Source: Candidatus Multivoradales bacterium (lineage in GTDB: Bacteria; Acidobacteriota; Thermoanaerobaculia; Multivoradales; J023). Taken from it: a stretch of DNA of 64,000 bases. The notes under the pieces are model-generated. The model searched no databases. It was not told where the DNA came from and worked only from the letters and a program-made list of their open reading frames with translations. The position numbers were made by a program, and so were the translations under genes. The stretch is from positions 672,001 through 736,000 of the forward strand of contig CBDFLE010000005.1 in NCBI GenBank assembly GCA_965248925.1. The letters are read 5' to 3'. Below, piece by piece: positions 15,670-44,484 of this stretch; position 1 is the stretch's first letter; each line of letters begins with the position of its first letter.

Positions 15670-15884
15670 CCGGCCAGCAATCGACAAACCCACGCCCCTT
15701 CCTTCACGTTTATCGGAAGAAAGACCGGCGCGCTATGCGCTTGGCCTTGGGCGAATTTCTCGCCGCATACCGTACGGCCGCGGAGAAACTTCGAAGTCGT
15801 GGAGCACCCCGAGGATTTCCCGAGAACTCCATCCCGCCAAGACCAGAATTCGTTGACACCACCACCCCTTCTGACTCTTCATAA
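15670..15884 (+). pseudogene. 3' remnant (~215 bp) of the RAYT/Y1 transposase
   Basis: Slightly diverged match to about 37857-38071, ending in the same ...CCCCTTCTGACTCTTCATAA; no upstream transposase sequence. Confidence 0.9.
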
Positions 15885-15885
15885 T

Positions 15886-15944
15886 GTGCCTGGCACCTAT
15901 TTCTGCAGCACCTATTTCTGCAGCGAATTGGCTGGCACCTATTC
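15886..15944 (+). repeat. RAYT-end hairpin GTGCC-T-GGCAC plus GCACCTATT repeats (copy 1)
   Basis: Hairpin 15886-15896; GCACCTATTTCTGCA x2 (15893, 15908); GAATTGGCTGGCACCTATTC at 15925-15944. Confidence 0.9.
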
Positions 15945-15951
15945 CGGCACA

Positions 15952-16374
15952 TCAAGTCTCTAGTTCACATGTGACTGTTTCCGCGAAACACTTGATTGAG
16001 AGCCCGTTTTCAAAGCGAAAGATCATGTGATACGTCGAATCTGATTCTCTCTGGGTAAGGCATCCGTCCATTACATCTAGGTCATCTGGATGAAGAAAAC
16101 CCAGGAAAGCCACTGTTTCCGCGTCAGCAGAAATTTCCGCATCTGTCAGTAAATCTGTCTTTAACAGTTTGACGCTTGTGAAGCGTATCGATATTTTCTG
16201 TGCAAGCGACACTTCAGGCGGATGTTGCTTAGATAGTACCCACAACAAGACTGTACTGTTCGTAGTTGCATCATACCAGTAGGTCTCGAAATCGTAGTCG
16301 TTGTGCAGGTCTAGCCAGATTGATCCCATGCTAATCGCGTAGTTGTCTCCGATCTCGAAGTTTGACATTTTCAT
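15952..16374 (-). CDS. Putative immunity protein for the orphan toxin tip
   Basis: 140-aa acidic ORF, visibly AT-richer than the flanks; its ATG overlaps the toxin-tip stop (TAATG). Confidence 0.75.
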   Translation of the reverse strand: MKMSNFEIGDNYAISMGSIWLDLHNDYDFETYWYDATTNSTVLLWVLSKQHPPEVSLAQKISIRFTSVKLLKTDLLTDAEISADAETVAFLGFLHPDDLDVMDGCLTQRESDSTYHMIFRFENGLSIKCFAETVTCELET

Positions 16375-16690
16375 TATTGCTCCCTTGATTTCAAGAGTCT
16401 GTCAACATTCCGCAAATCTGCACTCGTAGCTGGTCGTACCGGACCTACTTGGCTCCGGCTTCCAACTTGTCCCGCACGTGGTCCAGATGGGATAACGTTG
16501 TTTTGAAGAGTTGTTACATGGGGCGTATCAACTCCTCCGTGAGACCGGCCTCGGAGATCTATATTCACACGACCATTCGGGGTCTGAATTGAGACGCGGT
16601 TTCTTCCACCATTTCGAGTTACCAGATCTGAAGCCCGTTGCTCTATCGCTTGAGCTGTTCCTCCCTGGGAAAGGCTCTTCTTTGCCCGCT
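16374..16690 (-). pseudogene. Orphan polymorphic toxin C-terminal tip, Ntox24-like
   Basis: Frame extends upstream of the GTG: 'AIEQRASDLVTRNGGRNRVSIQTPNGRVNIDLRGRSHGGVDTPHV...VRPATSADLRNVDRLLKSREQ'. Resembles Ntox24 (DLxGxxHGG.xTPH) by recall; no Rhs core or DPxG upstream. Confidence 0.7.
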
Positions 16691-16706
16691 TGGCACCTAT
16701 TTCTGC
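16691..16706 (+). repeat. Isolated TGGCACCTATTTCTGC motif at the 5' truncation point of the orphan toxin
   Basis: Exact 16-nt copy of 15891-15906. Confidence 0.85.
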
Positions 16707-16742
16707 AACTATTCAGCGCCTATACTGGGTCGGGGCGGCAAC

Positions 16743-17096
16743 TCACGCTTTACGCTGATGAGGAAGTACGGTGGCCTTCCATGCCAGCCGAACCAAAGCG
16801 ACAATCACCGCCCAGCCTACAATGTTTGCTGAAAAGTAGAACACCATATGCAGCCAAAACCAGGTTCCCTCTGAATGAGCTACCCAATAGTAGGGCGTAA
16901 TACCGAAGATTTGCGGAAGATACTTCCCCGGAAGTCCCAAGAGCTGAAACTTGTGGAGCAGCGTCAAATAAGCGCCTTCAATGAGTGCGTCGTGGGTATA
17001 CGCCATCTCTATCAACGAGATTAGAAAGTGCTCTGCACAGCCAAGTATGATTCCCAGAGGCAGCACTCGCCGGAATTCGCAGATGAAGGAATTCAA
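16743..17096 (-). CDS. Putative membrane immunity protein for Rhs1
   Basis: Hydrophobic ~117-aa ORF whose TTG overlaps the Rhs1 stop; AT-richer; in the canonical immunity position. Confidence 0.55.
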   Translation of the reverse strand: MNSFICEFRRVLPLGIILGCAEHFLISLIEMAYTHDALIEGAYLTLLHKFQLLGLPGKYLPQIFGITPYYWVAHSEGTWFWLHMVFYFSANIVGWAVIVALVRLAWKATVLPHQRKA

Positions 17097-20000
17097 TGCT
17101 TTGTTCTCCTCGTGCAACAGGGTCTAGCCAAGAGGTCACGATGCAGATTCTCGTAGCGCAGAGCGTCGGAGTTGGTGTTTGTCCCCCGTCTTGGCATATT
17201 GAAAAGGAAGTAGGCACTGGCATGACCAAACTCATGCACGAGTGCGGTGCCTGGGCTAACGGGAAAGGAGCCAGGCACGCCTTTGAAACGCCCTCTCGTG
17301 AATTCTCCTTCTACAAACGTCTTAGCGACCTGCTTGGGGTTGATGCGAATCAGAATATCGCCACTCCGCGGAGTACCAACCGGTGTTGAGAACGTAACGG
17401 CGCCGCCAAACTCAGAAAGATTATCGGAAGTGATGTCGACAATGACACCAGTCTCCGTGCCTATTGCCGCCCCAATCAGCGCTGCTGTCGGGTTCGAGGA
17501 TTCCGTGAAGAGATCGAGATCTCCTCCAGCGTTGATCTGGTACTCACCGTCGACCCCTGTGGCGACCAGGCTGCTAGCCAAGTTGGCTACTCCCGCCTCT
17601 CGGAGAGCCGTACGGAGAGCCTCCAACTCGGCTTGTACTTCGTTGATGCTGTCACCAACTGCAAAGATGATATTCCCGGTGGGATCAACGAACTTCAGTG
17701 GATTTCCGGCAGCGTACGTGTACCGATTCCATCGCCTGGGGTCGTGGCGAGCTTTATCTATAAGTGGAAGAGCATCCGCGCTCAAGAACCGCCCCACGAC
17801 CGGACTACAATGCCGAGCATGCATGTAGTCGAGGTCTCCGTTGGCCCCCACCCCATTCTCATCCCGTTCATGGCCGGTAAATTTCAGCTGAAACTCATCC
17901 GAGCTAGCGCTGGTCGCCTCCTGCCCAAACGGGTAGTAGCTGTGCAGCGCCACCTGGCTACCGCTCTTGGTCACCTGCCGCGGAGATCCAAGATGATCGA
18001 GATGGAAGCTGTAGGTCTCCTCCACACCGTTCGCGTCGGGGTCAACTGAAGCTAGCATCTGCCCACCCCGATAGACGTAGTCCCGCTCCCACTCGAAGCT
18101 TTCGCCCCGCGGATGGGTGAAGACCCGCAGCACCTCATTGCCGAGCCCGCGCAGGGTCCAGGTCTCGCTGGCGGGGCTGCTGACGCAGCTGCTGCCGGCG
18201 GCGCTGAAGCAGCTGAAGGTGACGATGCGCTCGTCATCAGCGTTGTAGATGTACACGCTCGCCTGGTCGGTGTTGCTTTGCAGGTGCTTCATCATGTTGG
18301 CGGCGTCGTAGGTGTACTGGTAGATCTCCGAGCTACTGTAACGCACGCGGGTCAGGTTGCCGCCAGCGTCGTACACCGTGCCGCTGAGGCCGAGGCGGTT
18401 GGTGCTGCTGCTCGGGCTCATGGTCTGGCTGGCGCCGTGGGTGACCATCTGGGTAAGGTTGCCGAAGTTGTCATAGCTCGCGGTCTGTAGGCGGTCGTTG
18501 CTGCCGACTTTTACCTCGCCGCTGACCAGGCGCTGGAATCGGTCATAGCGATATTGCAAGGAGCCGATGCGGTGGATATTTCCGGCTCCGTCGTAGTCGA
18601 AGGTGCCGGTGTCCCAGCCGGCGTTGGTAGAGATGCGCTCGGGCCGGGCGAGGCCGGAGGGATCGACCTGGTAGGTTTCGGTGATGCCGCTCTGGTGGCT
18701 GATCTGGGTCAGCATGCCGCCGCTCTGATAGCTGAGGCTGGAGGCGAAGCCGGGGACCGCGGTGAGGAAGCCCTTGTCGTAGGCGAAGCTCACCTGCCGC
18801 GGCGGGCTGACCTGGTCGCAGCTGTCGTTGCTGTGCAGGCAGTCGGGATAGTCGAGGGTCGCGAGGTTGCCTTGCAGGTCATAGGAGAACCCACTCTGGA
18901 AGGCGTAGTGGCCGACGCCGAGCTGATAGCGGGTCTGGCGCTCGGACATCCGGCCGCCACGACCCGCGTAGACGAAGCTCTCGGAGATTCGGACATCGAG
19001 GAAGCCAGGATTGGCGTTCAGCGGATTCACCAGATCCACCCAATTGTGGCGGGTGGTCTGCACCAGCTTGCCGGCCCGCTTGTCGGCACCGACGTTCTTG
19101 CGGCCGTAGCGGAACTCCTTGAGCTTGCGCGGCGAGCCACCGTTGCTCTCGTCAACTCGGATCAGGCGTCCGGCTGGATCGTAGAAGTAGTCGAGGTCGA
19201 ACTCGGTGGAGCCGCCGATGCGTTTGCTCAAAACGCTGCCACGAGCATCATAGGAATAGGTCGTGGCGCCGTTGCCCACTGGGCCGACTTCGGGATGGGT
19301 CTCGGAGGTCAGGAAGCTGCGACCGTCATAGTTGAAGAAGCGTTGCTGGCCACAGGTCGATCCAGTCCGATTCTGGCAAACGTGGGTGAGCCGCGAGCCG
19401 GCGTCGTAGGCGTAGCGAGTCAGCAAGCCGCCCGCGTTGCAGCTGCCATTCCAGGCCGCCGATCTGCCTTCACAAACCTCGAACAATCGGCCCTGGCCAT
19501 CGGAGATCTCGGTGTTGTAGGTGTCTTCTTGCACTCCGGAGGCGAGCATCACTTTGAACCGCCGCGTCTTGGTGCGTTCGCCCTCGTAGCTGAGGAATGT
19601 GGCCGGCTGGCTTGGTGGGGTGATCCTGCCGGGGCGGCCGAAGTTGTCGTACTGCTCGTACTTGGTGACGCGGCTGTCGGAAGTGGCGTTGAGGGTCCAC
19701 ACCGATTCCGCGGTCTTCCAGGCCCGTGGGTTGAAGCTCATGTGGCGGTACCAGCGCACTCCGCCGGGCAACTGCACCTGCTCTTTGACCCTACGGCCGA
19801 GGCCGTCGAAAGTGTGCTGGCGGTAGGCCAGCAGGCCGGAGCCCGAGCAGGCGGCGGTGGTGACGCACTGCTCTTCGGTCAGCAGCGGCATCAGGTTGAA
19901 GTTGCTCTGGGTGGCCAGCCGGTAGGTGTAGCGGCGCACCGCCTCGCTCTCGGGAAACTCGTGGGTCAAGCGGCCCTGCCGGTCATAGAGGAAGTCGATC

Positions 20001-22192
20001 TTGACCCCGGCGCTGTCTCGGCTGCGTTTGACCAGGCCGGTGTTCTTGTCGAGATCGTAGTCGGCCAGTTTGAGTAGCACTTCGCTGGTGGCGCAAGGGT
20101 TGACCACCGTCGAGTTTCTCAGCACGCCGTACTGGTAGCCGTAGTTGGTGCGGTAAAGGGCGCCGGATTGGGCCGGGTTGATGCTGCCCAGGCTTGCGGT
20201 GCTGATCGCCTGGCTGTCGCCGCCGTATTGCAGCTCAGAGGCGACGAAGCCGGTGCTGCCAGCCTGCACGAAGATGCTCAGCAGGTCGTTCGACTGCCGC
20301 GAGCCACCTGCCAACACCCTGCGTTTGCGCAGGAAGCCGTTGACTAGCGCAAAGTCATACTCGGTGGATTCGGTGACGCCGTTCTCGGTCACCGATTGCG
20401 AGTTGAAGGTCTCCAGCACCCAGGGCTGGGTCTGGCCGAACATGGCGAAATCGGTGGCCGGATCGATGGCGCCGGTGTCGCTGTTGGCGATCAGGTAGGA
20501 GCCGCGATTCTGGTTGTAGAAGGTCTCGCTCGCGCGCACGTTGCCGCTGGCGAAGTTGCCGCCGGTGGTGGTGGTGCGGAAATGGCCGAGGCCATCGAAG
20601 TCCGAGTGGGTGACCTCGCGGAACTTGTCGCCGTCGTCGTGGTAGATGACTTTGCGGTACTTCATCCGGTGGTTGCGGTCGGCGTAGGTCCCGGATGGAC
20701 CGTCGTTCTCATACTCCAGGAAGATCGAGCGGCGCTTGCTGCCGCTGGCCACCGAGCCCTGGTAGATCTCCTGCGACAAGTAGGGTGGGTTGTTGTTGAA
20801 GTAGTCGTTGGTGCCCGGCGTGCAGCGGGTGAAGGGCAGGCCGAAACCCTGGCGATGGATGCCCGCGGAGTTAAACCAGTGCTTTGTGTCGTTGCCTAGC
20901 GGGTCGGTCAAGGTGAGCGTGTGGTAGCAAGAGATCTGGCCGGGGCCGAGCACTCCCTGGGGGTCGTAATCGTAAGTCCAGGTGCCGTGGGGCGAGTTTG
21001 GATAGTCGCTGTCTTTGAGATAGGTCGACTTGGTGGCCACGCCGGTGCCGGTGTTGGCCCACTCGCGGCCCTCGGGCACATCTGGGCTTTGGGCGTGGAA
21101 ATCGATCTCTTGGTACTTCCAGCCAAAGGCACCATCGGTGGGCAGGCGGAGGAACTTGATGCCGCCCGAGAGTTTCTCTCCTACATTGTCGGTGTGGTAG
21201 TAGTCCATTTGGTAGAACGAGTCGTCGGGCAAGACCAGGCGTTCGAGCAGGCGGACGCCGGAAAGGGTGTCCCCTTCGGGCACACACGAAGGCTGCGCGC
21301 CTTGGCGCTCCAGGTCGACCGGGCCGGAGTAGACTAGATCGTAGACGGCGCTTTGGTTGTTGAAAGCGGCGAGGGTGACCTTCTCCAGTCGGCCGGCGGT
21401 GAAATCGAGGGAATGACTCCTGTTGGCGGAATCGGTGACGCTCCAATCGCCGCCCGAGGCGTAGGCTATCTTGACCCAATGGCCGAAGCGGTCGAGCATC
21501 TTGGTCACCCGCCAATCGAAGCTGGTGTGGCTGATGTTATGGAATTCATGCATCTCACCACTTGGGAATTCCACCGTCCGGCAATCCTGGTCGAGCAGAT
21601 TCGACGGCGTCTCGCAGGGGCTCGAGGCGAATGGGTAGTAGCGCATTCTCAGGTAGGTACTGTCGCGGGTGAACCAGGTGTTGGGCTGGGTGCCGGCGGG
21701 CGGGTAGGTGCCGCTCTGGGCCGGGTGGAGGAAATCGTGGAAGGCGTGTTGCCCGCCGTCAGGGCTCAAATAGGAAAACCCGCTGAAGGGTGGCGCGGGA
21801 TTGCCGCCTTCGGAGCGCACCAACTGGCCAAGATTGACCCGCCACCCCCAGCCAGAATTCGCATCGAGATCTTGAATCGGCAAGTTGTAGGAAACCAGCA
21901 TCTGGTTGGGCGGCGTGCCCTCGGTGCAGCTCTGTTGGTCGTCAAAGTCCCAGCCGCTGGAGTTGTAGGTCAGGGTGAAGCCGTAGCTCAGAGTGGGACC
22001 CACCGGGTAGCTCTGGCCGAGGGGCAGGCGGAGCGACAGATTCCCCGAGAAGAGGTTGATCGAATCGATGGCGCCGACTTGGAAGGCGGTGTCGGCGGTG
22101 ACGCCCCGCTGGTGGCTCTGGGGCTGTTGCGCGGCGGTCGGCCCGGCGAGGGCAACGTAGAGAAGTGAGGCGATGAGAATTTTCTGTTGCAT
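17093..22192 (-). CDS. Rhs/YD-repeat polymorphic toxin 1, Sec signal, HExxH metallopeptidase-like tip
   Basis: YD repeats, core 'HLDHLGSPR...YYPFG...KFTGHERD...YMHARH..P..GRFLS.D...Y...NP..FVDPTG'; tip 'LVHEFGHA...ALRYEN.HR'. Confidence 0.95.
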   Translation of the reverse strand: MQQKILIASLLYVALAGPTAAQQPQSHQRGVTADTAFQVGAIDSINLFSGNLSLRLPLGQSYPVGPTLSYGFTLTYNSSGWDFDDQQSCTEGTPPNQMLVSYNLPIQDLDANSGWGWRVNLGQLVRSEGGNPAPPFSGFSYLSPDGGQHAFHDFLHPAQSGTYPPAGTQPNTWFTRDSTYLRMRYYPFASSPCETPSNLLDQDCRTVEFPSGEMHEFHNISHTSFDWRVTKMLDRFGHWVKIAYASGGDWSVTDSANRSHSLDFTAGRLEKVTLAAFNNQSAVYDLVYSGPVDLERQGAQPSCVPEGDTLSGVRLLERLVLPDDSFYQMDYYHTDNVGEKLSGGIKFLRLPTDGAFGWKYQEIDFHAQSPDVPEGREWANTGTGVATKSTYLKDSDYPNSPHGTWTYDYDPQGVLGPGQISCYHTLTLTDPLGNDTKHWFNSAGIHRQGFGLPFTRCTPGTNDYFNNNPPYLSQEIYQGSVASGSKRRSIFLEYENDGPSGTYADRNHRMKYRKVIYHDDGDKFREVTHSDFDGLGHFRTTTTGGNFASGNVRASETFYNQNRGSYLIANSDTGAIDPATDFAMFGQTQPWVLETFNSQSVTENGVTESTEYDFALVNGFLRKRRVLAGGSRQSNDLLSIFVQAGSTGFVASELQYGGDSQAISTASLGSINPAQSGALYRTNYGYQYGVLRNSTVVNPCATSEVLLKLADYDLDKNTGLVKRSRDSAGVKIDFLYDRQGRLTHEFPESEAVRRYTYRLATQSNFNLMPLLTEEQCVTTAACSGSGLLAYRQHTFDGLGRRVKEQVQLPGGVRWYRHMSFNPRAWKTAESVWTLNATSDSRVTKYEQYDNFGRPGRITPPSQPATFLSYEGERTKTRRFKVMLASGVQEDTYNTEISDGQGRLFEVCEGRSAAWNGSCNAGGLLTRYAYDAGSRLTHVCQNRTGSTCGQQRFFNYDGRSFLTSETHPEVGPVGNGATTYSYDARGSVLSKRIGGSTEFDLDYFYDPAGRLIRVDESNGGSPRKLKEFRYGRKNVGADKRAGKLVQTTRHNWVDLVNPLNANPGFLDVRISESFVYAGRGGRMSERQTRYQLGVGHYAFQSGFSYDLQGNLATLDYPDCLHSNDSCDQVSPPRQVSFAYDKGFLTAVPGFASSLSYQSGGMLTQISHQSGITETYQVDPSGLARPERISTNAGWDTGTFDYDGAGNIHRIGSLQYRYDRFQRLVSGEVKVGSNDRLQTASYDNFGNLTQMVTHGASQTMSPSSSTNRLGLSGTVYDAGGNLTRVRYSSSEIYQYTYDAANMMKHLQSNTDQASVYIYNADDERIVTFSCFSAAGSSCVSSPASETWTLRGLGNEVLRVFTHPRGESFEWERDYVYRGGQMLASVDPDANGVEETYSFHLDHLGSPRQVTKSGSQVALHSYYPFGQEATSASSDEFQLKFTGHERDENGVGANGDLDYMHARHCSPVVGRFLSADALPLIDKARHDPRRWNRYTYAAGNPLKFVDPTGNIIFAVGDSINEVQAELEALRTALREAGVANLASSLVATGVDGEYQINAGGDLDLFTESSNPTAALIGAAIGTETGVIVDITSDNLSEFGGAVTFSTPVGTPRSGDILIRINPKQVAKTFVEGEFTRGRFKGVPGSFPVSPGTALVHEFGHASAYFLFNMPRRGTNTNSDALRYENLHRDLLARPCCTRRTKH

Positions 22193-22206
22193 AGTCTTGG
22201 ACTCCT

Positions 22207-22641
22207 TCAGCAGCCGCTGCCGGGGCAGGTGCTATCCCATTGATTGGCATTGCCAGACTCAAAGTTGTCGCCAAAGAGCACGGCGATGGACTTGACGGCG
22301 ACGGTGGCCGAGGTGCTGTGGTGGGTCTCGTCTTCGATGCGGTAGGTCAGGGTGCAGTTGGCATCGATCGAGGGGTTGGGGGTCAAGCGGATCAGATCGA
22401 GCACGATCTCGGTGCTCGCCGGGCAGGTGCTGGCGAGGACGGTGACAGTCAGGGCTTCGCCGTCGGGCTCGGTGTCGTTGGCCAGGACATCAATCAGGAT
22501 CGGGGCGGAGGCGGCTTCGGCGTTGTCGCCCGAGGCGATGGGGGTGCTGTTGCATTGAGCGTGGGCGGTGGCGGCGGCGACTGCGACTGCCAGTAGGCAG
22601 GCGGCGTTTAGGATCGAACATCTGGGGATTCTGTCTCTCAA
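22207..22641 (-). CDS. Small secreted Ig/cadherin-like protein with C-terminal 'LFGDNFESG' motif (copy 1)
   Basis: Signal peptide ending AHA; 'P.A..D....IDVLANDTEPDGEAL' Big_9-like motif; stop lies 15 bp upstream of the Rhs start. Confidence 0.8.
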   Translation of the reverse strand: MRDRIPRCSILNAACLLAVAVAAATAHAQCNSTPIASGDNAEAASAPILIDVLANDTEPDGEALTVTVLASTCPASTEIVLDLIRLTPNPSIDANCTLTYRIEDETHHSTSATVAVKSIAVLFGDNFESGNANQWDSTCPGSGC

Positions 22642-22978
22642 GGCTACCTCACTTTCTGGAAGATTCTAGATTCGTTCTCTTGCTTGGACTGGCCCTAGGC
22701 CCACCAGGTTCCCGCTCGACTTTGTTTCGTCAAACAAGCTATGGGAAAAGATGTTAGAGACCAAACGGTTCATTTTGGCAGGCTGGAAATGAACCGTTTC
22801 CCCTCGATCCACTGAATGACAGAGATTGCACGCGAGGGAACTCCTTGTTTTCGATATTCTGATATTGTCTACATATATCAATGGTCAAAATCGCGGCGTG
22901 CATTCGATAGCCGCACATCCAATCCCGAGGTCATTCGGCGGGCACTGCTCGCGCAACTCGCAAAAGACCAATAAGCGC

Positions 22979-23539
22979 TCACTCCACCACGGCACTCCGC
23001 CCCCGCAACAGCACCACCACCCGAGCAGCACACCTCGCGAGATCGTCTCCGACCTCCAGCGACTCAATCCAGCCGCTCAGCCGTCGGCGTGCTTTTCCTG
23101 TCGGCCGGTGCGCCTGCTGCTCCCATCCCGAAATCGTCTCTGGTGCCACGTCGATGACCGTGGCGAGAGAGCGCTGCGAAAATCCGAGCCTGCGCCGCAA
23201 AGCCATCAGCAGCTCAGCCACATTCTCGGGCTCAGGGTTTGGATCGTAGCCAAGCCAGTCCGTGAGTGCCGGCCAAAACCGGACTTCCGGGTAGCCCCTG
23301 TCATGTTCCCAATTTACTATCGAACCCAGACAGACGCCGAGCGTTCGGGCAACGTCTTTCTGCAACTGACCACGATCAAGCCGACATCTCTTGATGTGGT
23401 TACCAATCGTAACAAGTTCTCGCGGATACCCCGCAATCTTGGGGATACGTCCTCTCAACTGGACATGGCAAAAGGGGGCCGCAATCATGCAAGTGCGGGC
23501 ATTTGGGGGACGATCGGCATCACTGCAAATGCTCGCCAC
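22979..23539 (-). CDS. Tandem XRE-HTH protein (copy 1; start uncertain)
   Basis: 'TIGNHIKRCRLDRGQLQKDVARTLGV...IVNWE' and 'LRRRLGFSQRSLATVIDVAPETISGWE'. Confidence 0.75.
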   Translation of the reverse strand: MASICSDADRPPNARTCMIAAPFCHVQLRGRIPKIAGYPRELVTIGNHIKRCRLDRGQLQKDVARTLGVCLGSIVNWEHDRGYPEVRFWPALTDWLGYDPNPEPENVAELLMALRRRLGFSQRSLATVIDVAPETISGWEQQAHRPTGKARRRLSGWIESLEVGDDLARCAARVVVLLRGRSAVVE

Positions 23540-29513: not shown

Positions 29514-29516
29514 GGC

Positions 29517-37130: not shown

Positions 37131-38071
37131 TGCCACGTTTACCACGCTACTTGCCGCGTCCCGGCTGCTTGGTCGAGATCACCCAGCGGACTCTGCAAGG
37201 GCGCTACCTCCTACGACCGAGCCGGCGTCTCAATCAGCTTCTAATCGGAATTCTTGCCAAAGCCCAGCAAGAAACCGAGCTCGCCGTCCATGCGATCGCC
37301 GTCCTCTCAAATCACTTCCACCTACTCGCTTCACCGGCCACCGTCGAACAGATTGCGCGATTTATGGGACACCTCAAGACCAACATAGCCAAAGAAATAG
37401 GTCGTCTCCACGACTGGCCCGGCTCGATGTTCGACCGGCGCTACACCATGATTCCGGTCAGCGACGAAGAGGAAGCTCAGATCAAGCGCCTCGAGTACCT
37501 CCTCTCTCAAGGCTGCAAAGAAGGGCTCGTGACGTCACCCCTCGAGTGGCCGGGAGCCCACTGCGCAGGAGCGCTCCTGACGGGCTATCCGCTGAGGGGA
37601 ATCTGGATCGACCGCACTCGGCAATGGGCGGCGAGCCAGCGCGAGGCCGACACCGGGGAATCCGACTTCGTAACCGACGTCGAGCTAAAGCTCGACAACC
37701 TGCCATGTTGGAAGCATCTTGCGCTAGAAGCCCAGCAGCAACACATCTTGGAGCTCATCGAGAAGATCGAGAGAGATACTGCAAGACTCCATCAAGACCG
37801 AGGAACCGAGCCCCTCGGCGCATTCCTCGTCGGCCAGCAGCAGACACATCGACGCCCCGGCCAGCAACCGACAAACCCACCCCCCTTCTTTCACGTCTAT
37901 CGGAAGAAAGTCCGGCACGCGATGCGCTTGGCCTTGGGCGAATTCCTCACTGCATACCGTACGGCCGCGGAGAAACTTCGAAGCCGTGGAGCACCTAGCG
38001 GATTTCCTGAAAACTCCTTCCCGCCAAGACCAAAATTCGTTGACACCAACACCCCTTCTGACTCTTCATAA
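37130..38071 (+). CDS. Intact REP-associated-type tyrosine (Y1 HUH) transposase, 313 aa
   Basis: 'MPRLPR...VEITQRT', HUH 'LSNHFHLL', 'FDRRY', catalytic-Tyr region 'RLEYLLSQGCKEGLV..P.EWPG'; ATG overlaps the comM stop (TGATG); no tnpB nearby. Confidence 0.88.
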   Translation: MPRLPRYLPRPGCLVEITQRTLQGRYLLRPSRRLNQLLIGILAKAQQETELAVHAIAVLSNHFHLLASPATVEQIARFMGHLKTNIAKEIGRLHDWPGSMFDRRYTMIPVSDEEEAQIKRLEYLLSQGCKEGLVTSPLEWPGAHCAGALLTGYPLRGIWIDRTRQWAASQREADTGESDFVTDVELKLDNLPCWKHLALEAQQQHILELIEKIERDTARLHQDRGTEPLGAFLVGQQQTHRRPGQQPTNPPPFFHVYRKKVRHAMRLALGEFLTAYRTAAEKLRSRGAPSGFPENSFPPRPKFVDTNTPSDSS

Positions 38072-38072
38072 T

Positions 38073-38114
38073 GTGCCTGGCACCTATTTCTCCTATTTCT
38101 GCACCTATTTCTGC
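38073..38114 (+). repeat. RAYT-end hairpin plus stuttered CCTATTTCT repeats (copy 3)
   Basis: GTGCCTGGCACCTATTTCT-CCTATTTCT-GCACCTATTTCTGC. Confidence 0.9.
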
Positions 38115-38116
38115 TG

Positions 38117-38238
38117 GGTTTCGGGCACTGGAGGGCTTCGAGGTCGAGGACCAGGAAGCCGTCATCAGGCTCATCGACGCGATGATTCTCAAGCACCGGG
38201 TCCAGGGTGCAGTAGGAGCCGGTAGCGCTGCCTCTTAG
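38117..38238 (+). pseudogene. 5'-truncated RstR-like XRE repressor C-terminus
   Basis: 'FRALEGFEVEDQEAVIRLIDAMILKHRVQGAVGAGSAAS*' starts right after the motif; family assignment by recall. Confidence 0.6.
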
Positions 38239-38270
38239 AAGAAGCGATGCCCGAGCCCCAGGTGTACTGA

Positions 38271-38292
38271 AAGCCCGGCTCGCACCGGGCTT
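38271..38292. terminator. Hairpin AAGCCCGG-N6-CCGGGCTT
   Basis: 8-bp inverted repeat between the convergent XRE fragment and the immunity gene. Confidence 0.45.
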
Positions 38293-38327
38293 CACTCAAT
38301 GCAAGTGGCTGATCCTAGGTGGCTTGT

Positions 38328-38388
38328 GAATTGGCTGGCACCTATTCAGGGACCACCCGCTAATGTGTGGCACCCTCTCGGGTGCCGC
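38328..38388 (+). repeat. GAATTGGCTGGCACCTATTC motif and GGCACCC-TCTC-GGGTGCC hairpin
   Basis: 38328-38347 is identical to 15925-15944; 38361 TAATGTG-TGGCACC is a variant of the RAYT end. Confidence 0.8.
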
Positions 38389-38407
38389 ATGCAGCGCCCA
38401 CTGTGGG

Positions 38408-38809
38408 CTACTTCGACGAAGCGATCGTTATCGGATTTCCGTCGCGAAAGACAATATCCCGAGCAAGGTCGCCGACGATATTCTCCTGCTCCATCTCGAA
38501 ATAATGATCGAGATCATCAAAGTCTAGCCTTCGGTCGCTGCCAGGTGAAATCAGCACAAACGAGAACTCTGGTTCTCTTCGAGTCCTGAAGAAATATCGA
38601 GTCCCCCACCGGTCCTTCCCGTCTCCTATCGAATCGATGATTCGCCGAGCCTGCTCGTCAGAAATAGAGCCTTCCAACTTCACATGAGACTGAATGTCTC
38701 GCGAGATATTCAGTAGATCCGCAAACGTTGGAAGTTGTTTCGTTGCCGACATCACACCCCAGCAGTCGATCTGGCACAGCAAAAGCAAGGACCCTAAGAG
38801 TTTCTTCAT
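38408..38809 (-). CDS. Putative exported immunity protein for Rhs3
   Basis: ATGA overlap with the Rhs3 stop; signal-like 'MKKLLGSLLLLC'; 'DRWG..Y....F.LISPGSD...D' resembles the GspG C-terminal motif. Confidence 0.7.
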   Translation of the reverse strand: MKKLLGSLLLLCQIDCWGVMSATKQLPTFADLLNISRDIQSHVKLEGSISDEQARRIIDSIGDGKDRWGTRYFFRTRREPEFSFVLISPGSDRRLDFDDLDHYFEMEQENIVGDLARDIVFRDGNPITIASSK

Positions 38810-41800
38810 CGTTCACCTTCCGACAGCAATGGCTCCTGGTCAAGAATTAGAAGATGCTCCTCGACTTGGTTCGGGAAAACTTCCTGAACCAACAGAGGGT
38901 CGAATACAACTATTGCAGAAACCTGATCTGACAAGACCCCGTCTTCCAGTGCTGCCGCCAGCCGTTGGGGAGAGTCGTATAGGATCCCCCTCTCCGGCCG
39001 TTGACCTTCGGAAAGAACCCCTGCATCGCGAAGAACGTCACCACAGGCCGAACTGCAGTTCTGGCGACGTACCTCGTATGCCTTCTTCGGCTTTTTCGCC
39101 GAGTCGACAATACGAGAGTCTCGGGCCGCATCGGATTTCATTACGAATGCGGTCACACGGCGTTGCTGGGCCAAGTACTTATTGATGAATGCTGCAACGG
39201 ACGGCTCAAGTTGAACAGGAGTCCCTTCACTTACCGACGCTCTCCCCTCTGCCGCGGTGGCTATTATCGCTGCGTGACCGAAGCTAGTGCTAGCTTCGTT
39301 GAAGCTACCAGAAACGACAAAAACAACCGTCTCCTTCCCGTTTCGATCTAGGAATTTCGCAGGATTATTAAGCGCATAGGTGTACCGATTCCACCGCTGC
39401 TGAAGACGGGTCGGATTTCTCAACAACTTTGGATCTGTTCCCAGAAACCGCCCCACGACCGGACTACAATGCCGAGCATGCATGTAGTCGAGGTCTCCGT
39501 TGGCCCCCACCCCATTCTCATCCCGCTCATGGCCGGTAAATTTCAGCTGAAACTCATCCGAGGTGGTGCTAGTCGCCTCTCGCCCAAACGGGTAGTAGCT
39601 GTGCAGTGCTACCTGGCTACCACCCTTGGTCACCTGCCGCGGCGAGCCAAGATGATCAAGATGGAAGCTGTAGGTCTCCTCGACACCGTTGGCGTCGGGA
39701 TCGACTGAAGCTAGCATCTGCCCACCCCGATAGACGTAGTCCCGCTCCCACTCGAAGCTTTCGCCACGTGGATGGCTAAAGACCCGCAGCACCTCGTTGC
39801 CGAGACCGCGCAGGGTCCAGGTCTCGCTGGCCGGGCTGCTGACGCAGCTGCTGCCGGCGGCGCTAAAGCAGCTGAAGGTGACGATGCGCTCGTCATCAGC
39901 GTTGTAGATGTACACGCTCGCCTGGTCGGTATTGGATTGCAGGTGCTTCATCATGTTGGCGGCGTCGTAGGTGTACTGGTAGATCTCCGAGCTACTGTAA
40001 CGCACGCGGGTCAGGTTTCCCCCAGCGTCATAGGTGGTGCCGCTGAGGCCGAGGCGGTTGGTGCTGCTGCTCGGGCTCATGGTCTGGCTGGCGCCGTGGG
40101 TGACCATCTGGGTAAGGTTGCCGAAGTTGTCATAGCTCGCGGTCTGTAGGCGGTCGTTGCTGCCGACTTTTACCTCGCCGCTGACCAGGCGCTGGAATCG
40201 GTCATAGCGATATTGCAAGGAGCCGATGCGGTGGATATTTCCGGCTCCGTCGTAGTCGAAGGTGCCGGTGTCCCAGCCGGCGTTGGTAGAGATGCGCTCG
40301 GGCCGGGCGAGGCCGGAGGGATCGACCTGGTAGGTTTCGGTGATGCCGCTCTGGTGGCTGATCTGGGTCAGCATGCCGCCGCTCTGGTAGCTGAGGCTGG
40401 AGGCGAAGCCGGGCACCGCGGTGAGGAGGCCTTTGTCGTAAGCGAAGCTCACCTGCCGCGGTGGGCTGACCTGGTCGCAGCTGTCGTTGCTGTGCAGACA
40501 GTCGGGATAGTCGAGGGTCGCGAGGTTGCCTTGCAGGTCATAGGAGAACCCACTCTGGAAGGCGTAGTGGCCGACGCCGAGCTGGTAGCGGGTCTGGCGC
40601 TCGGACATCCGCCCACCGCGGCCAGCGTAGACGAAGCTCTCGGAGATCCGGACATCGAGGAAGCCAGGATTGGCGTTCAGCGGATTCACCAGATCCACCC
40701 AATTGTGGCGGGTGGTCTGCACCAGCTTGCCGGCCCGCTTGTCGGCACCGACGTTCTTGCGGCCGTAGCGGAACTCCTTGAGCTTGCGCGGCGAGCCACC
40801 GTTGCTCTCGTCAACTCGGATCAGGCGTCCGGCTGGATCGTAGAAGTAGTCGAGGTCGAACTCGGTGGAGCCGCCGATGCGTTTGCTCAAAACGCTGCCA
40901 CGAGCATCATAGGAATAGGTCGTGGCGCCGTTGCCCACTGGGCCGACTTCGGGATGGGTCTCGGAGGTCAGGAAGCTGCGACCGTCATAGTTGAAGAAGC
41001 GTTGCTGGCCACAGGTCGATCCAGTCCGATTCTGGCAAACGTGGGTGAGCCGCGAGCCGGCGTCGTAGGCGTAGCGAGTCAGCAAGCCGCCCGCGTTGCA
41101 GCTGCCATTCCAGGCCGCCGATCTGCCTTCACAAACCTCGAACAATCGGCCCTGGCCATCGGAGATCTCGGTGTTGTAGGTGTCTTCTTGCACTCCGGAG
41201 GCGAGCATCACTTTGAACCGCCGCGTCTTGGTGCGTTCGCCCTCGTAGCTGAGGAATGTGGCCGGCTGGCTTGGTGGGGTGATCCTGCCGGGGCGGCCGA
41301 AGTTGTCGTACTGCTCGTACTTGGTGACGCGGCTGTCGGAAGTGGCGTTGAGGGTCCACACCGATTCCGCGGTCTTCCAGGCCCGTGGGTTGAAGCTCAT
41401 GTGGCGGTACCAGCGCACTCCGCCGGGCAACTGCACCTGCTCTTTGACCCTACGGCCGAGGCCGTCGAAAGTGTGCTGGCGGTAGGCCAGCAGGCCGGAG
41501 CCCGAGCAGGCGGCGGTGGTGACGCACTGCTCTTCGGTCAGCAGCGGCATCAGGTTGAAGTTGCTCTGGGTGGCCAGCCGGTAGGTGTAGCGGCGCACCG
41601 CCTCGCTCTCGGGAAACTCGTGGGTCAAGCGGCCCTGCCGGTCATAGAGGAAGTCGATCTTGACCCCGGCGCTGTCTCGGCTGCGTTTGACCAAGCCGGT
41701 GTTCTTGTCGAGATCGTAGTCGGCCAGTTTGAGTAGCACTTCGCTGGTGGCGCAAGGGTTGACCACCGTCGAGTTTCTCAGCACGCCGTACTGGTAGCCG

Positions 41801-43851
41801 TAGTTGGTGCGGTAAAGGGCGCCGGATTGGGCCGGGTTGATGCTGCCCAGGCTTGCGGTGCTGATCGCCTGGCTGTCGCCGCCGTATTGCAGCTCAGAGG
41901 CGACGAAGCCGGTGCTGCCAGCCTGCACGAAGATGCTCAGCAGGTCGTTCGACTGCCGCGAGCCACCTGCCAACACCCTGCGTTTGCGCAGGAAGCCGTT
42001 GACTAGCGCAAAGTCATACTCGGTGGATTCGGTGACGCCGTTCTCGGTCACCGATTGCGAGTTGAAGGTCTCCAGCACCCAGGGCTGGGTCTGGCCGAAC
42101 ATGGCGAAATCGGTGGCCGGATCGATGGCGCCGGTGTCGCTGTTGGCGATCAGGTAGGAGCCGCGATTCTGGTTGTAGAAGGTCTCGCTCGCGCGCACGT
42201 TGCCGCTGGCGAAGTTGCCGCCGGTGGTGGTGGTGCGGAAATGGCCGAGGCCATCGAAGTCCGAGTGGGTGACCTCGCGGAACTTGTCGCCGTCGTCGTG
42301 GTAGATGACTTTGCGGTACTTCATCCGGTGGTTGCGGTCGGCGTAGGTCCCGGATGGACCGTCGTTCTCATACTCCAGGAAGATCGAGCGGCGCTTGCTG
42401 CCGCTGGCCACCGAGCCCTGGTAGATCTCCTGCGACAAGTAGGGTGGGTTGTTGTTGAAGTAGTCGTTGGTGCCCGGCGTGCAGCGGGTGAAGGGCAGGC
42501 CGAAACCCTGGCGATGGATGCCCGCGGAGTTAAACCAGTGCTTTGTGTCGTTGCCTAGCGGGTCGGTCAAGGTGAGCGTGTGGTAGCAAGAGATCTGGCC
42601 GGGGCCGAGCACTCCCTGGGGGTCGTAATCGTAAGTCCAGGTGCCGTGGGGCGAGTTTGGATAGTCGCTGTCTTTGAGATAGGTCGACTTGGTGGCCACG
42701 CCGGTGCCGGTGTTGGCCCACTCGCGGCCCTCGGGCACATCTGGGCTTTGGGCGTGGAAATCGATCTCTTGGTACTTCCAGCCAAAGGCACCATCGGTGG
42801 GCAGGCGGAGGAACTTGATGCCGCCCGAGAGTTTCTCTCCTACATTGTCGGTGTGGTAGTAGTCCATTTGGTAGAACGAGTCGTCGGGCAAGACCAGGCG
42901 TTCGAGTAGGCGGACGCCGGAAAGGGTGTCCCCTTCGGGCACACACGAAGGCTGCGCGCCTTGGCGCTCCAGGTCGACCGGGCCGGAGTAGACTAGATCG
43001 TAGACGGCGCTTTGGTTGTTGAAGGCGGCGAGGGTGACCTTCTCCAGTCGGCCGGCGGTGAAATCGAGGGAATGACTCCTGTTGGCGGAATCGGTGACGC
43101 TCCAATCGCCGCCCGAGGCGTAGGCTATCTTGACCCAATGGCCGAAGCGGTCGAGCATCTTGGTCACTCGCCAATCGAAGCTGGTGTGGCTGATGTTATG
43201 GAATTCATGCATCTCACCACTTGGGAATTCCACCGTCCGGCAATCCTGGTCGAGCAGATTCGACGGCGTCTCGCAGGGGCTCGATGCGAATGGGTAGTAG
43301 CGCATTCTCAGGTAGGTACTGTCGCGGGTGAACCAGGTGTTGGGCTGGGTGCCGGCGGGCGGGTAGGTGCCGCTCTGGGCCGGGTGGAGGAAATCGTGGA
43401 AGGCGTGTTGCCCGCCGTCAGGGCTCAAATAGGAAAACCCGCTGAAGGGTGGCGCGGGATTGCCGCCTTCGGAGCGCACCAACTGGCCAAGATTGACCCG
43501 CCACCCCCAGCCAGAATTCGCATCGAGATCTTGAATCGGCAAGTTGTAGGAAACCAGCATCTGGTTGGGCGGCGTGCCCTCGGTGCAGCTCTGTTGGTCG
43601 TCAAAGTCCCAGCCGCTGGAGTTGTAGGTCAGGGTGAAGCCGTAGCTCAGAGTGGGACCCACCGGGTAGCTCTGGCCGAGGGGCAGGCGGAGCGACAGAT
43701 TCCCCGAGAAGAGGTTGATCGAGTCGATGTCGCCGACTTGGAAGGCGGTGTCGGCGGTGACGCCCCGCTGGTGGCTCTGGGGCTGTTGCGCGGCGGTCGG
43801 CCCGGCGAGGGCAACGTAGAGAAGTGAGGCGATGAGAATTTTCTGTTGCAT
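38806..43851 (-). CDS. Rhs polymorphic toxin 3, papain-like (His...NC) tip
   Basis: Same core; 'LDRNG' boundary at 39348-39337; tip 'FGHAAI...YEVRRQNCSS'. Confidence 0.95.
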   Translation of the reverse strand: MQQKILIASLLYVALAGPTAAQQPQSHQRGVTADTAFQVGDIDSINLFSGNLSLRLPLGQSYPVGPTLSYGFTLTYNSSGWDFDDQQSCTEGTPPNQMLVSYNLPIQDLDANSGWGWRVNLGQLVRSEGGNPAPPFSGFSYLSPDGGQHAFHDFLHPAQSGTYPPAGTQPNTWFTRDSTYLRMRYYPFASSPCETPSNLLDQDCRTVEFPSGEMHEFHNISHTSFDWRVTKMLDRFGHWVKIAYASGGDWSVTDSANRSHSLDFTAGRLEKVTLAAFNNQSAVYDLVYSGPVDLERQGAQPSCVPEGDTLSGVRLLERLVLPDDSFYQMDYYHTDNVGEKLSGGIKFLRLPTDGAFGWKYQEIDFHAQSPDVPEGREWANTGTGVATKSTYLKDSDYPNSPHGTWTYDYDPQGVLGPGQISCYHTLTLTDPLGNDTKHWFNSAGIHRQGFGLPFTRCTPGTNDYFNNNPPYLSQEIYQGSVASGSKRRSIFLEYENDGPSGTYADRNHRMKYRKVIYHDDGDKFREVTHSDFDGLGHFRTTTTGGNFASGNVRASETFYNQNRGSYLIANSDTGAIDPATDFAMFGQTQPWVLETFNSQSVTENGVTESTEYDFALVNGFLRKRRVLAGGSRQSNDLLSIFVQAGSTGFVASELQYGGDSQAISTASLGSINPAQSGALYRTNYGYQYGVLRNSTVVNPCATSEVLLKLADYDLDKNTGLVKRSRDSAGVKIDFLYDRQGRLTHEFPESEAVRRYTYRLATQSNFNLMPLLTEEQCVTTAACSGSGLLAYRQHTFDGLGRRVKEQVQLPGGVRWYRHMSFNPRAWKTAESVWTLNATSDSRVTKYEQYDNFGRPGRITPPSQPATFLSYEGERTKTRRFKVMLASGVQEDTYNTEISDGQGRLFEVCEGRSAAWNGSCNAGGLLTRYAYDAGSRLTHVCQNRTGSTCGQQRFFNYDGRSFLTSETHPEVGPVGNGATTYSYDARGSVLSKRIGGSTEFDLDYFYDPAGRLIRVDESNGGSPRKLKEFRYGRKNVGADKRAGKLVQTTRHNWVDLVNPLNANPGFLDVRISESFVYAGRGGRMSERQTRYQLGVGHYAFQSGFSYDLQGNLATLDYPDCLHSNDSCDQVSPPRQVSFAYDKGLLTAVPGFASSLSYQSGGMLTQISHQSGITETYQVDPSGLARPERISTNAGWDTGTFDYDGAGNIHRIGSLQYRYDRFQRLVSGEVKVGSNDRLQTASYDNFGNLTQMVTHGASQTMSPSSSTNRLGLSGTTYDAGGNLTRVRYSSSEIYQYTYDAANMMKHLQSNTDQASVYIYNADDERIVTFSCFSAAGSSCVSSPASETWTLRGLGNEVLRVFSHPRGESFEWERDYVYRGGQMLASVDPDANGVEETYSFHLDHLGSPRQVTKGGSQVALHSYYPFGREATSTTSDEFQLKFTGHERDENGVGANGDLDYMHARHCSPVVGRFLGTDPKLLRNPTRLQQRWNRYTYALNNPAKFLDRNGKETVVFVVSGSFNEASTSFGHAAIIATAAEGRASVSEGTPVQLEPSVAAFINKYLAQQRRVTAFVMKSDAARDSRIVDSAKKPKKAYEVRRQNCSSACGDVLRDAGVLSEGQRPERGILYDSPQRLAAALEDGVLSDQVSAIVVFDPLLVQEVFPNQVEEHLLILDQEPLLSEGER

Positions 43852-43865
43852 AGTCTTTGACTCCT

Positions 43866-44300
43866 TCAGCAGCCGCTGCCGGGGCAGGTGCTATCCCATT
43901 GATTGGCATTGCCAGACTCAAAGTTGTCGCCAAAGAGCACGGCGATGGACTTGACGGCGACGGTGGCCGAGGTGCTGTGGTGGGTCTCGTCTTCGATGCG
44001 GTAGGTCAAAGTGCAGTTGGCATCGATCGACGGGTTCGGGGTCAATCGGATCAGATCGAGCACGATCTCGGTGCTCGCCGGGCAGGTGCTGGCGAGGACG
44101 GTGACAGTCAGGGCTTCGCCGTCGGGCTCGGTGTCGTTGGCCAGGACATCAATCAGGATCGGGGCGGAGGCGGCTTCTGCGTTGTCGCCCGAGGCGATGG
44201 GGGTGCTGTTGCATTGAGCGTGGGCGGTGGCGGCGGCGAGCAGGCCGAGAGCGAGCGCCGCTGCCGGCCACGCCATGCATCCAGAGATTTTTCGCTTCAT
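43866..44300 (-). CDS. Small secreted Ig/cadherin-like protein (copy 3, different signal peptide)
   Basis: Mature part matches copies 1 and 2; ATG 44300 after GGAGGT; leader 'MKRKISGCMAWPAAALALGLL'. Confidence 0.8.
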   Translation of the reverse strand: MKRKISGCMAWPAAALALGLLAAATAHAQCNSTPIASGDNAEAASAPILIDVLANDTEPDGEALTVTVLASTCPASTEIVLDLIRLTPNPSIDANCTLTYRIEDETHHSTSATVAVKSIAVLFGDNFESGNANQWDSTCPGSGC

Positions 44301-44484
44301 TCGTACCTCCAGTCCAGATCGTTCTGTCTTCCTTCTTCCTACTTGGACACAACGACGTTCCGTCAGGTTCCCGCTCGAAGAAGGATTGCTCCTCATCCAG
44401 CGCCGAGGTCATTCGGCGAGCACTGCTCGCGCGGCTCTAGAAAAACCAGTCACTGCGGGCATTCGGGAGACACACGCAACCTAT

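Follow-up and report, generated by a model that had tools for sequence, protein, structure and literature searches.

In a 64-kb stretch of the genome of Candidatus Multivoradales bacterium (positions 672001-736000 of contig C5 of the source genome, G000; hereafter the window, to which plain coordinates refer), three minus-strand Rhs genes lie between pdxH and position ~44400, and each stands tail to tail with the 3' end of a Y1/HUH transposase gene. The reading that we favour, and to which we give about an even chance of being right, is that the transposase belongs to an element akin to the insertion sequence (IS) IS200 and to the RAYTs (REP-associated tyrosine transposases, REP being repetitive extragenic palindrome), and that the right end (RE) of this element is a site-specific hot spot of breakage and rejoining at the boundaries of Rhs cassettes. 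What was observed directly is the anatomy of the array, the precision of its junctions, the distribution over this genome and across genera, and a statistical association of transposase with Rhs; the association is real, recurs independently and lies far above chance.

The right end, its junctions and its palindrome

Directly 3' of the three transposase stops (15884, 29462 and 38071) stands the same 20-mer, TGTGCCTGGCACCTATTTCT, at 15885, 29463 and 38072, with a fourth copy at 29494. Both the three 3' ends facing Rhs and the 20-mer behind each stop had been described in an earlier sequence-only reading of the window and were confirmed, with transposase C intact, B split by IS21/IS3 and A reduced to a 235-bp stub. 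The nine positions given there for GCACCTATT (15893, 15908, 15935, 16693, 29471, 29502, 38080, 38101 and 38338) were likewise all correct and all on the + strand, against 0.27 expected and a maximum of 2 in 100 shuffles. The statement that this motif occurs nowhere else holds for the 64-kb window and fails for the genome, in which GCACCTATT was found 65 times. The 11-nt hairpin is present behind the stop, and it is weak (4-bp stem, 3-nt loop, -2.4 kcal/mol, z -1.8). In the family as a whole the RE palindrome reads (K)TGCC-N-GGCAC and is followed by 8-13 nt.

The homology of all copies of the transposase ends at 38091/38092, directly after CTATTTCT, beyond which five different right flanks follow. 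In the native copy, which lies beside the yifB gene, the right flank resumes at window position 30410, inside the toxin tip of Rhs-B, with 99.8% identity, and the native junction therefore equals unit B minus 927 bp, a deletion from the exact RE with microhomology of at most 1 nt. The junctions of B and C have in common a fragment of a helix-turn-helix (HTH)-like gene, truncated by different amounts. Between hairpin and Rhs core the DNA is otherwise unrelated among the three units, and the proposal that the cargo differs in all three copies stands except for this 34-50-nt fragment common to B and C. Partial copies of the end that finish at the same base follow directly after RE in every unit (31 nt in B, 15 nt in A, 9 + 12 nt in C), and others stand at internal boundaries of the cargo (16690-16707, 15924-15943 and 38327-38346). 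Read along the + strand, the region is a chain of segments of 9 nt to ~12.8 kb, each ending in RE or a remnant of it: 15905-15919, 15920-15943, 15944-16704, 16705-29482, 29483-29513, 29514-38091, 38092-38112 and 38113-38346.

Across 11 arrays the breakpoints of the partial units recur at three places. Some units stop after GTGCC and others begin at GCAC, and these two kinds together place a break in the hairpin loop; a third kind stops 8-23 nt beyond the hairpin on its 3' side. The same pattern of end-anchored partial copies, or stutter, was seen in G011, a genome of another genus, where the element ends in ...AATACTTGCCCGGCACGTGAAGAAGGCCG, homologous to CATAATGTGCCTGGCACCTATTTCT; at three loci of that genome the RE array stops, by eye, ~15-50 nt from the stop of the small open reading frame (ORF) behind Rhs. 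The right end bears the marks of a site-specific break-and-rejoin process. According to the favoured reading, RE would have moved up to the stop codon in the window's transposase lineage, and the enzyme would nick single-stranded DNA at the 3' edge of RE, probably in the hairpin loop too, and rejoin it to nearby sites. Nicking and rejoining of this kind would yield RE-terminated partial duplications (the stutter), deletions from the exact RE, and solitary REP-like arrays. The Y1 enzyme is the presumed maker of the RE junctions on the strength of the known chemistry of HUH Y1 enzymes, and the strand and site of cleavage are presumed along with it.

The palindrome itself is widespread. GTGCCWGGCAC was counted 70 times in the source genome, grouped into 28 clusters, whereas the reversed control gave 3. 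An Rhs match stands within 5 kb of seven clusters, five of which are part of the duplicated unit; the remaining 21 are remote from both Rhs genes and transposases, some of them forming arrays between peptidase- and kinase-like genes. The sequence-only reading had named scattering of the motif without relation to toxin cargo as an outcome that would speak against it, and for these 21 clusters that outcome was found. The repeat is enriched throughout the bacterial family, with 262 copies in G001, 105 in G016, 100 in G019 and 96 in G009 (controls 3-8), and most copies stand in stutter arrays (runs of partial copies) away from Rhs; genome counts compared with controls gave no enrichment outside this family. 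Around 30 homologues of the transposase (110 kb, five genomes) there are 30 hairpins in 8 loci, where ~1.5 were expected, or ~20 times the genome density; they are mostly arrays 100-500 nt upstream of the gene, with flanking arrays in G001, G018 and G019. This distribution is REP-like behaviour. The 5' foot of the hairpin is ATAAT or ATAAG in the source genome and variable in G001, and is not the GTAG/GTGG foot.

Such a palindrome might have been a regulatory or structural site unrelated to the transposase, either an operator of a dimeric DNA-binding protein or a terminator, and GTGCC-N-GGCAC is indeed a duplex palindrome, often intergenic and preceded in the source genome by ATAAT/ATAAG. We consider this very improbable, as there is no T-run and the stem has only 4 bp, the partial copies form arrays in one orientation, the genome richest in the hairpin (G001) lacks the ATAAK prefix, and the palindrome is the homologous end of the elements of the Y1 homologues beside which it is enriched ~20-fold. 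A sigma-54 promoter in TGGCAC-N-TTGC was rejected on spacing, GG and GC lying 8 nt apart instead of the 10 nt of the consensus.

Some stutter arrays have flanking words of their own (X-ATAAK-GTGCCTGGCAC-C-Y) and many partial copies, and are intergenic and far from Y1 or Rhs genes (C5:1397781-1397970, C6:765089-765244, C6:1089097-1090086, C6:1196595-1197046, C6:1206410-1206665 and C6:2177223-2177488; C4, C5 and C6 are contigs of the source genome). The segment between two arrays at C6:1089-1090 kb resembles by eye a DDE transposase fragment, which is a candidate only. ORFs ending just 5' of other stutter arrays were considered as transposases and rejected, the conserved TAA being part of the repeat and not a stop.

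The association with Rhs genes

A pair was defined as an Rhs core end (TIGR03696) at most 5 kb downstream of a transposase, convergent or co-directional, and enrichment is expressed relative to chance placement and not relative to other IS families. In the source genome 10 of 28 transposase loci are convergent with an Rhs core end and none is co-directional. The sequence-only reading had taken the three pairings of the window as separate instances, which they are not: they are copies of one duplicated unit with the same yifB' scar and count as one event. With the duplicated unit left out, 5 of 20 loci are still convergent, against a permutation mean of 0.51 (P=1e-4), and these five pairs involve paralogues 31-45% identical to the window enzyme and different Rhs families. 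The expectation that Rhs cargo would be found beside homologues was borne out in three other genera as well. G011, with 28 Rhs core ends, has 7 convergent and 1 co-directional pairs in the 23 of 34 matches examined (rough chance 0.2), one of the convergent pairs being its own yifB-linked copy; G031, from another family of the order, has 2 and 1 (10 examined, 7 core ends, rough chance 0.04); and G013 has 2 and 0 (4 examined, 15 core ends, rough chance 0.02). The counts for these three genomes were made by hand from listed coordinates and ignore kinship. Over the four genera, without the duplicated unit, there are 16 convergent and 2 co-directional pairs, those of G011 being among the matches listed.

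The RE core, TGGCACCT, was counted in the 3 kb behind each of the 85 Rhs core ends of the source genome: 46 copies are convergent and 5 are in the sense direction, with 8.1 expected; the matches are spread over 34 of the 85 loci in ~28 distinct contexts, and the coding-strand bias for this motif is the opposite one (9.5 sense vs 5.0 antisense).

It may be asked whether the enzyme is involved at all. The 3' flanks of Rhs genes might be a passive junkyard that tolerates insertions, in which IS of any kind persist while the need for the immunity gene restrains deletions; the exact boundaries would then mark where an old insertion begins and stops, and only ordinary Rhs tip displacement would make the cargo differ. 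Other IS are in fact present, namely the IS21 with a nested IS3 in the array and a 1.27-kb insertion in the native copy, and E. coli Rhs elements are known for H-rpt/ISAs1 insertions 3' of their core. The cargo abounds in fragments of the sort that repeated illegitimate events leave behind, and the reduction of the three window pairings to one duplicated unit also agrees with this view. Passive persistence nevertheless does not predict the one-sided orientation of the pairs (16 vs 2), for which no replication-strand bias offers an explanation, and five junctions at the same base of an element without a left end cannot all be primary insertions. The 927-bp deletion is anchored on that very base with microhomology of at most 1 nt, and the same end-anchored stutter is found in another genus. 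We therefore judge the junkyard unlikely.

At the other extreme, the Y1 enzyme with its minimal RE could be a dedicated toxin recombination device, an extension of the sequence-only reading, in which the enzyme uses the hairpin as an attI-like site for capturing or shuffling toxin-tip and immunity DNA. In such an HUH-based, integron-like system the enzyme would nick at RE or at RE-like sites behind immunity genes and excise single-stranded DNA circles of toxin-tip and immunity DNA, which would be rejoined at RE and so inserted or shuffled between REs. In an ISCR-like variant a one-ended event at RE would circularise the whole Rhs unit, and the circle would integrate by Rhs-core homology into another Rhs gene; circle formation and homologous integration are known from ISCR1 complex integrons. 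Part of the capture proposal has held, as RE is conserved, five different right flanks join it at the exact base after CTATTTCT, and partial copies stand at cargo boundaries in a chain of RE-terminated segments. The orphan module at 15944-16704 is bounded on both sides by same-orientation RE-type sites, and an Rhs fragment at C5:1440544-1443540 lies between two same-orientation REs. The convergent-strand enrichment of the RE core behind 34 of 85 Rhs core ends and the 16 to 2 pairing in four genera also fit, and tandem units with differing cargo and one yifB' scar would suit a circle followed by homologous integration. Capture itself stays conjecture because no gain event was seen and the sole polarised event is a deletion. 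Moreover, nested deletions of a single ancestral junction would suffice to give the B, C and native junctions, and the "cassettes" include random gene pieces (the HTH gene tail, Rhs core fragments) rather than functional units. The 21 hairpin clusters in ordinary intergenic DNA have no toxin cargo, the internal sites are partial, lack the left arm of the hairpin and may not be substrates, and in unit A the orphan has the position, distal to the core, that ordinary displacement would lead one to expect. RE-type sites at the 5' starts of orphan Rhs fragments are no general feature (3 of 38). For these reasons the integron-like system appears doubtful to us, and a dedicated device improbable to the same degree.

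Comparisons that could have revealed gain or loss gave little. No locus related to that of the window was found among genome contigs, and the 22-nt and 21-nt RE patterns had 0 matches there and matched 2 unrelated short metagenome contigs. Four sequencing runs of one sample, as Logan contigs, contained five joints when compared with 29300-39500, all of them paralogous junctions already in the assembly (the native locus, unit A and C5:1443386). When C6:1745-1754 kb was set against its C4 paralogue as an empty-site comparison, homology stopped at the toxin tip.

The favoured reading of a site-specific hot spot has its own difficulties. Convergent pairs number 0 in 6 of 10 genomes (G016 0/27, G009 0/22, G001 0/9, G039 0/7, G020 0/7 and G033 0/2); several of the genomes without pairs are fragmented drafts with Rhs ends and transposases at contig ends; G039, however, has only 3 contigs. 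Stop-free frames of 80 codons or more contain 28 of the 46 TGGCACCT matches, some of which may for that reason be coding sequence, and paralogy inflates the raw count. There is no replication-strand bias, with transposase loci split 15 vs 13 and hairpin clusters 15 vs 13 (hand count, GC-skew replichores); IS608 and ISDra2 have such a bias, towards the lagging-strand template. On these same splits, replication-coupled orientation was rejected as the cause of the convergent pairing. Because yifB abuts its start codon, the transposase of the window has no left end of its own and cannot be mobile in the manner of a classical IS. Of the ~6 copies of this lineage just 2, window C and C6:3632714, are intact, other insertions having disrupted both copy B and the native one. 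Replication slippage induced by the hairpin, weak as it is, could account for some of the stutter. Cleavage and joining by the transposase are what we infer from sequence.

If the hot-spot reading is correct, members of the family would be found or retained preferentially just beyond the Rhs immunity gene, pointing at the Rhs module, and RE at the Rhs flank would form a sharp, recombination-prone boundary. The multicopy element would also provide a second homology block besides the Rhs core, leading to exchange, duplication and pruning of units and cargo, with a presumed benefit to the host.

Organisation and origin of the array

The window repeats itself, 17781-24178 matching 30941-37338 at 97.8% identity and 17787-22580 matching 39446-44239 at 98.7%, so that the array is a tandem triplication of one unit made up of the Rhs core, the Rhs upstream region, a 3' yifB/comM fragment and the Y1 transposase gene (Table 1). 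All three large minus-strand ORFs are Rhs genes (RHS_repeat E 1e-18, TIGR03696 core ends), and each has a small overlapping ORF, the putative immunity gene, on its 3' side and a small Ig/cadherin-like gene on its 5' side. The RHS repeats, core end, variable tip and small downstream gene are those of Rhs polymorphic toxin loci. Neither the tips nor the putative immunity genes fall into a Pfam family, and toxin and immunity roles are therefore assigned by position, apart from an Ntox24-like fragment just below the cut-off.

Table 1. Features of the Rhs array (window coordinates; E, E-value)
Feature	Position	Strand	Evidence and remarks
pdxH (pyridoxamine 5'-phosphate oxidase)	15030-15635	+	Pfam PNPOx_N E 1e-17, PNP_phzG_C E 3e-13; housekeeping, left array border
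Transposase stub A, last ~71 codons, 235 bp	15670-15884	+	15670-15904 = 37857-38091 at 91.9% (self-BLAST)
RE-A	15885-15904	+	then 15-nt partial repeat (GCA + GCACCTATTTCT) at 15905-15919
Second-type end remnant GAATTGGCTGGCACCTATTC	15924-15943	+	
Orphan putative immunity gene, 140 aa	15952-16374	-	by position only, directly downstream of toxin fragment; no Pfam family
Orphan toxin fragment, Ntox24-like, 64 aa	16374-16568	-	Pfam PF15529 E 5e-5, 23.9 bits vs cut-off 24
Partial right-end copy TTGGCACCTATTTCTGCA	16690-16707	+	separates orphan module from immunity gene A
Putative immunity gene A, 124 aa	16743-17117	-	by position; overlaps Rhs-A stop; no Pfam family
Rhs-A, 1699 aa	17093-22192	-	RHS_repeat E 6e-19; variable C-terminal tip ~17093-17780
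Small Ig/cadherin-like gene, 5' of Rhs-A	22207-22641	-	paralogues 35367-35801, 43866-44396
yifB' copy B, 3' fragment of Mg-chelatase-like yifB/comM	23503-23970	+	TIGR00368 E 1e-39, profile 354-499 of 499
Transposase B, 5' part	23970-24178	+	residues 1-136 at 99%
IS21 (istA 26936-28510, istB 24534-25247) with nested IS3 (25300-26882)	24179-28722	-	inserted in transposase B
Transposase B, 3' part	28723-29462	+	99.87% identical to 37332-38091
RE-B	29463-29482	+	then 31-nt tandem copy 29483-29513, likewise ending at CTATTTCT
Junk, RE-B to immunity gene B	29514-29825		52 nt of HTH-like gene 3' fragment and other short pieces (genome BLAST)
Putative immunity gene B, 179 aa	29826-30365	-	by position; weak TPR/ARM-like match E 0.009
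Rhs-B, 1675 aa	30325-35352	-	variable tip ~30325-30940
yifB' copy C	36663-37130	+	left junction of transposase segment at 36647|36648
Transposase C, intact, 313 aa	37130-38071	+	ATG overlaps yifB' stop; PF01797 E 6e-7
RE-C	38072-38091	+	then two partial copies, CCTATTTCT and GCACCTATTTCT, to 38112
HTH-like gene 3' fragment	38113-38346	+	as a repeat 38117-38351; second-type end remnant at 38327-38346
Putative immunity gene C, 133 aa	38408-38809	-	by position; no Pfam family
Rhs-C, 1681 aa	38806-43851	-	variable tip ~38806-39445
Partial form of RE-type site, GGCACCTATTYC			

Stub A matches residues 310-380 at 86% in tblastn, and its DNA is 92% identical to copies B and C. The homology of Rhs-A to Rhs-B and Rhs-C begins at 17781/17787, and the Ig/cadherin-like copy at 43866-44396 matches Big_9 (E 3e-12). 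The insertion in transposase B scores 288, 259 and 189 bits with NCBIfam NF033546, NF038214 and NF033516 for IS21/IS3 and is flanked by a 7-bp duplication (24172-24178 = 28723-28729), and the junk behind RE-B includes a ~110-nt fragment of Rhs core (29657-29770). The second-type end unit is found also at 38327-38346, C4:253167, C6:4208412/4208447 and C6:2544414. The HTH-like 3' fragment, which ends ...LIDAMILKHRVQG..., recurs at C6:3642317-3642552 (91.5%), C5:965277-965398 (87%), C4:253154-253228 (83%) and window 29519-29566, and adjoins right-end remnants downstream of several Rhs modules.

The Rhs repertoire of the source genome is very large, 38 of its 85 TIGR03696 core ends lying in frames of less than 1000 aa. 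A uniform class of orphans, 365-381 aa long and keeping exactly 107 aa of core, occurs in repeated arrays, and examples of the repertoire lie at C5:921625-984619, C6:3495944-3519110 and C6:2444248-2456979. The cumulative GC skew has its minimum near C6:2.65 Mb, which places the origin there, and its peak near C5:750 kb, 15-80 kb to the right of the window, which places the terminus. The Rhs array therefore probably adjoins the terminus, and its Rhs genes are read against the direction of replication.

The only full-length yifB in the source genome lies at C5:1436792-1438270, with this transposase directly 3' of it. The native transposase copy carries a 1273-bp insertion (C5:1439211-1440483) with a 9-bp repeat on both sides and ends at C5:1440543, where a truncated Rhs gene follows directly. 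All non-native copies, that is, the two copies and the stub of the window, C6:3632690-3634927, C6:3616145-3617958 and C6:4221180, have the same yifB' fragment and a left junction equivalent to 36647|36648, at which microhomology only was seen and no RE-like site or end motif. The common scar and left junction indicate that these copies spread as part of the Rhs unit and not by IS transposition with a left end of their own. G011, too, has a yifB-linked transposase that points at an Rhs core end, at a distance of 4.8 kb (G011:C21:100720-106708), and because this is the same arrangement in another genus, yifB-transposase-Rhs may be ancestral rather than peculiar to the source genome. One transposase gene, first placed beside yifB and an Rhs gene, would have been duplicated together with the Rhs unit, after which RE-anchored deletions and duplications would have reshaped the cargo flank and tip displacement brought different toxins. 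New toxin tips probably arise mainly by ordinary Rhs C-terminal displacement.

Transposase C belongs to the Y1 HUH superfamily, as the sequence-only reading had it (Pfam PF01797, 30 bits vs cut-off 23, E 6e-7). Its HUH motif is NHFH and its catalytic Tyr lies in LEYLLSQ, which align with DHVH and YIESQ of the best solved relative, ISDra2 TnpA (2XM3), at a weak E of 0.047. The 356 homologues are named "transposase" or "REP element-mobilizing transposase RayT" and come in relatives labelled Acidobacteriota; members have 300-315 aa and the database label COG1943 "RayT". The source genome has 14 PF01797 matches and 28 loci of the family, which is present in 35 of 41 genomes searched with a maximum of 34 matches per genome. 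Paralogues align from the start Met of transposase C. In a 37%-identical paralogue with four copies, similarity is confined between a left boundary, (T)TTCAGGGTGCCACCC, and a right boundary, GGGTGGCACGCTGTT, and G011 has a 1473-bp unit in tandem with tail copies of 253 bp and 117 bp behind it. The paralogues are thus discrete elements with two palindrome-bearing ends, whereas the gene of the window has a start that overlaps the yifB stop and a non-specific shared left junction. No terminal inverted repeats or target duplications were noticed at the paralogues, where no dedicated test for either was made. With many diverged copies, defined ends and a subterminal palindrome, the family behaves, to judge from its sequences, like an IS200/IS605-type element.

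Relation to known systems and significance

Like the RAYTs, which with their REP sequences make up the "REPtron", the enzyme of the window is a Y1 HUH protein of PF01797 with a palindromic repeat beside its gene that is also dispersed in the genome and in relatives, and its homologues are named RayT; in the window this cognate repeat is one-sided and its copies are not in inverted pairs. The region of its Y motif (YLLSQG...GLV) resembles that of RAYT subclass 2.1 (YIELNP...GLV) as given in Table 1 of PMC6006769. Unlike the RAYTs, it scores 44.6 bits with the RAYT equivalog NF047646, below the cut-off of 80, and has a 170-aa C-terminal extension. The family has 19-34 diverged copies per genome instead of about one domesticated copy, 1.3-1.8 per replicon having been reported for RAYTs. 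Its repeats do not form inverted REP doublets but line up as partial copies in a single orientation, and they have no GTAG/GTGG foot. An association with Rhs tails is not among the RAYT features described in the main accounts of Quentin et al. 2018 (PMC6006769) and Bertels et al. 2017 (PMC5581495). On what these accounts contain, the family sits between RAYTs and IS200/IS605 elements (PMC6006769, PMC5581495).

With IS608 and ISDra2, as members of IS200/IS605, the family has in common the catalytic motifs and, in its paralogues, multicopy units with fixed palindrome-bearing ends. The window protein is twice as long, however, its gene is without a left end, the family lacks the replication-strand bias, and the stems are very short (4-5 bp). 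We know of no described IS200/IS605 feature that corresponds to end-anchored tandem partial copies. ISCR1/IS91 elements in complex class 1 integrons offer a resemblance in layout, with a precise end downstream of an HUH gene that abuts variable DNA and a long conserved segment duplicated on either side (the 3' conserved segment there, the Rhs core here). The enzymes of ISCR1 and IS91 are Y2 HUH transposases of a different family, whereas the window protein matches Y1_Tnp only, which makes this a likeness of layout and not membership.

Integrons and recombinase-associated immunity arrays likewise have toxin and immunity modules beside a site-specific DNA enzyme and short one-orientation boundary sites, and XerC/D genes next to polyimmunity loci are mentioned by Zhang et al. 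2012 (PMC3482391). The window array differs in having no tyrosine recombinase, no 60-140-nt attC-like folded site and no common promoter, and its modules are as often fragments as genes. No integrase was present among the large ORFs scanned at 15670-44450 (Rhs, Y1, IS21, IS3, yifB', Ig-like), a scan not aimed at IntI or attC. Rhs loci with orphan tips and IS remnants resemble the array in their conserved core, variable tip, immunity gene, downstream orphans and 3' IS, and are unlike it in that the flank here is one Y1 family, convergent, cross-genus and with a base-exact junction. Literature searches gave no paper linking Y1/HUH enzymes to Rhs cassettes, and the neighbourhood supplements of PMC3482391 and PMC6006769 may hold cases.

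The reshuffling of tips and immunity genes in polymorphic toxins is usually ascribed to homologous recombination alone, and the oriented, recurrent pairing of HUH/Y1 and Rhs genes, together with base-exact junctions, provides a testable candidate for an enzyme-driven component. The cognate DNA sites of large multicopy RayT proteins like those of subclass 2.1 are reported as unknown in the text of PMC6006769 that bears on them, and the present genomes offer a candidate site, (K)TGCC-N-GGCAC with its tail, as well as a candidate position of cleavage. If the enzyme is simply that of an IS favouring Rhs flanks, the finding would still help annotation, as it would explain why assemblies break there and where the boundaries of the cargo lie. 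If, on the other hand, the recombination-device reading were true, the enzyme would build, prune and reshuffle Rhs arsenals, as a counterpart of integrons based on HUH chemistry in several genera of the order.

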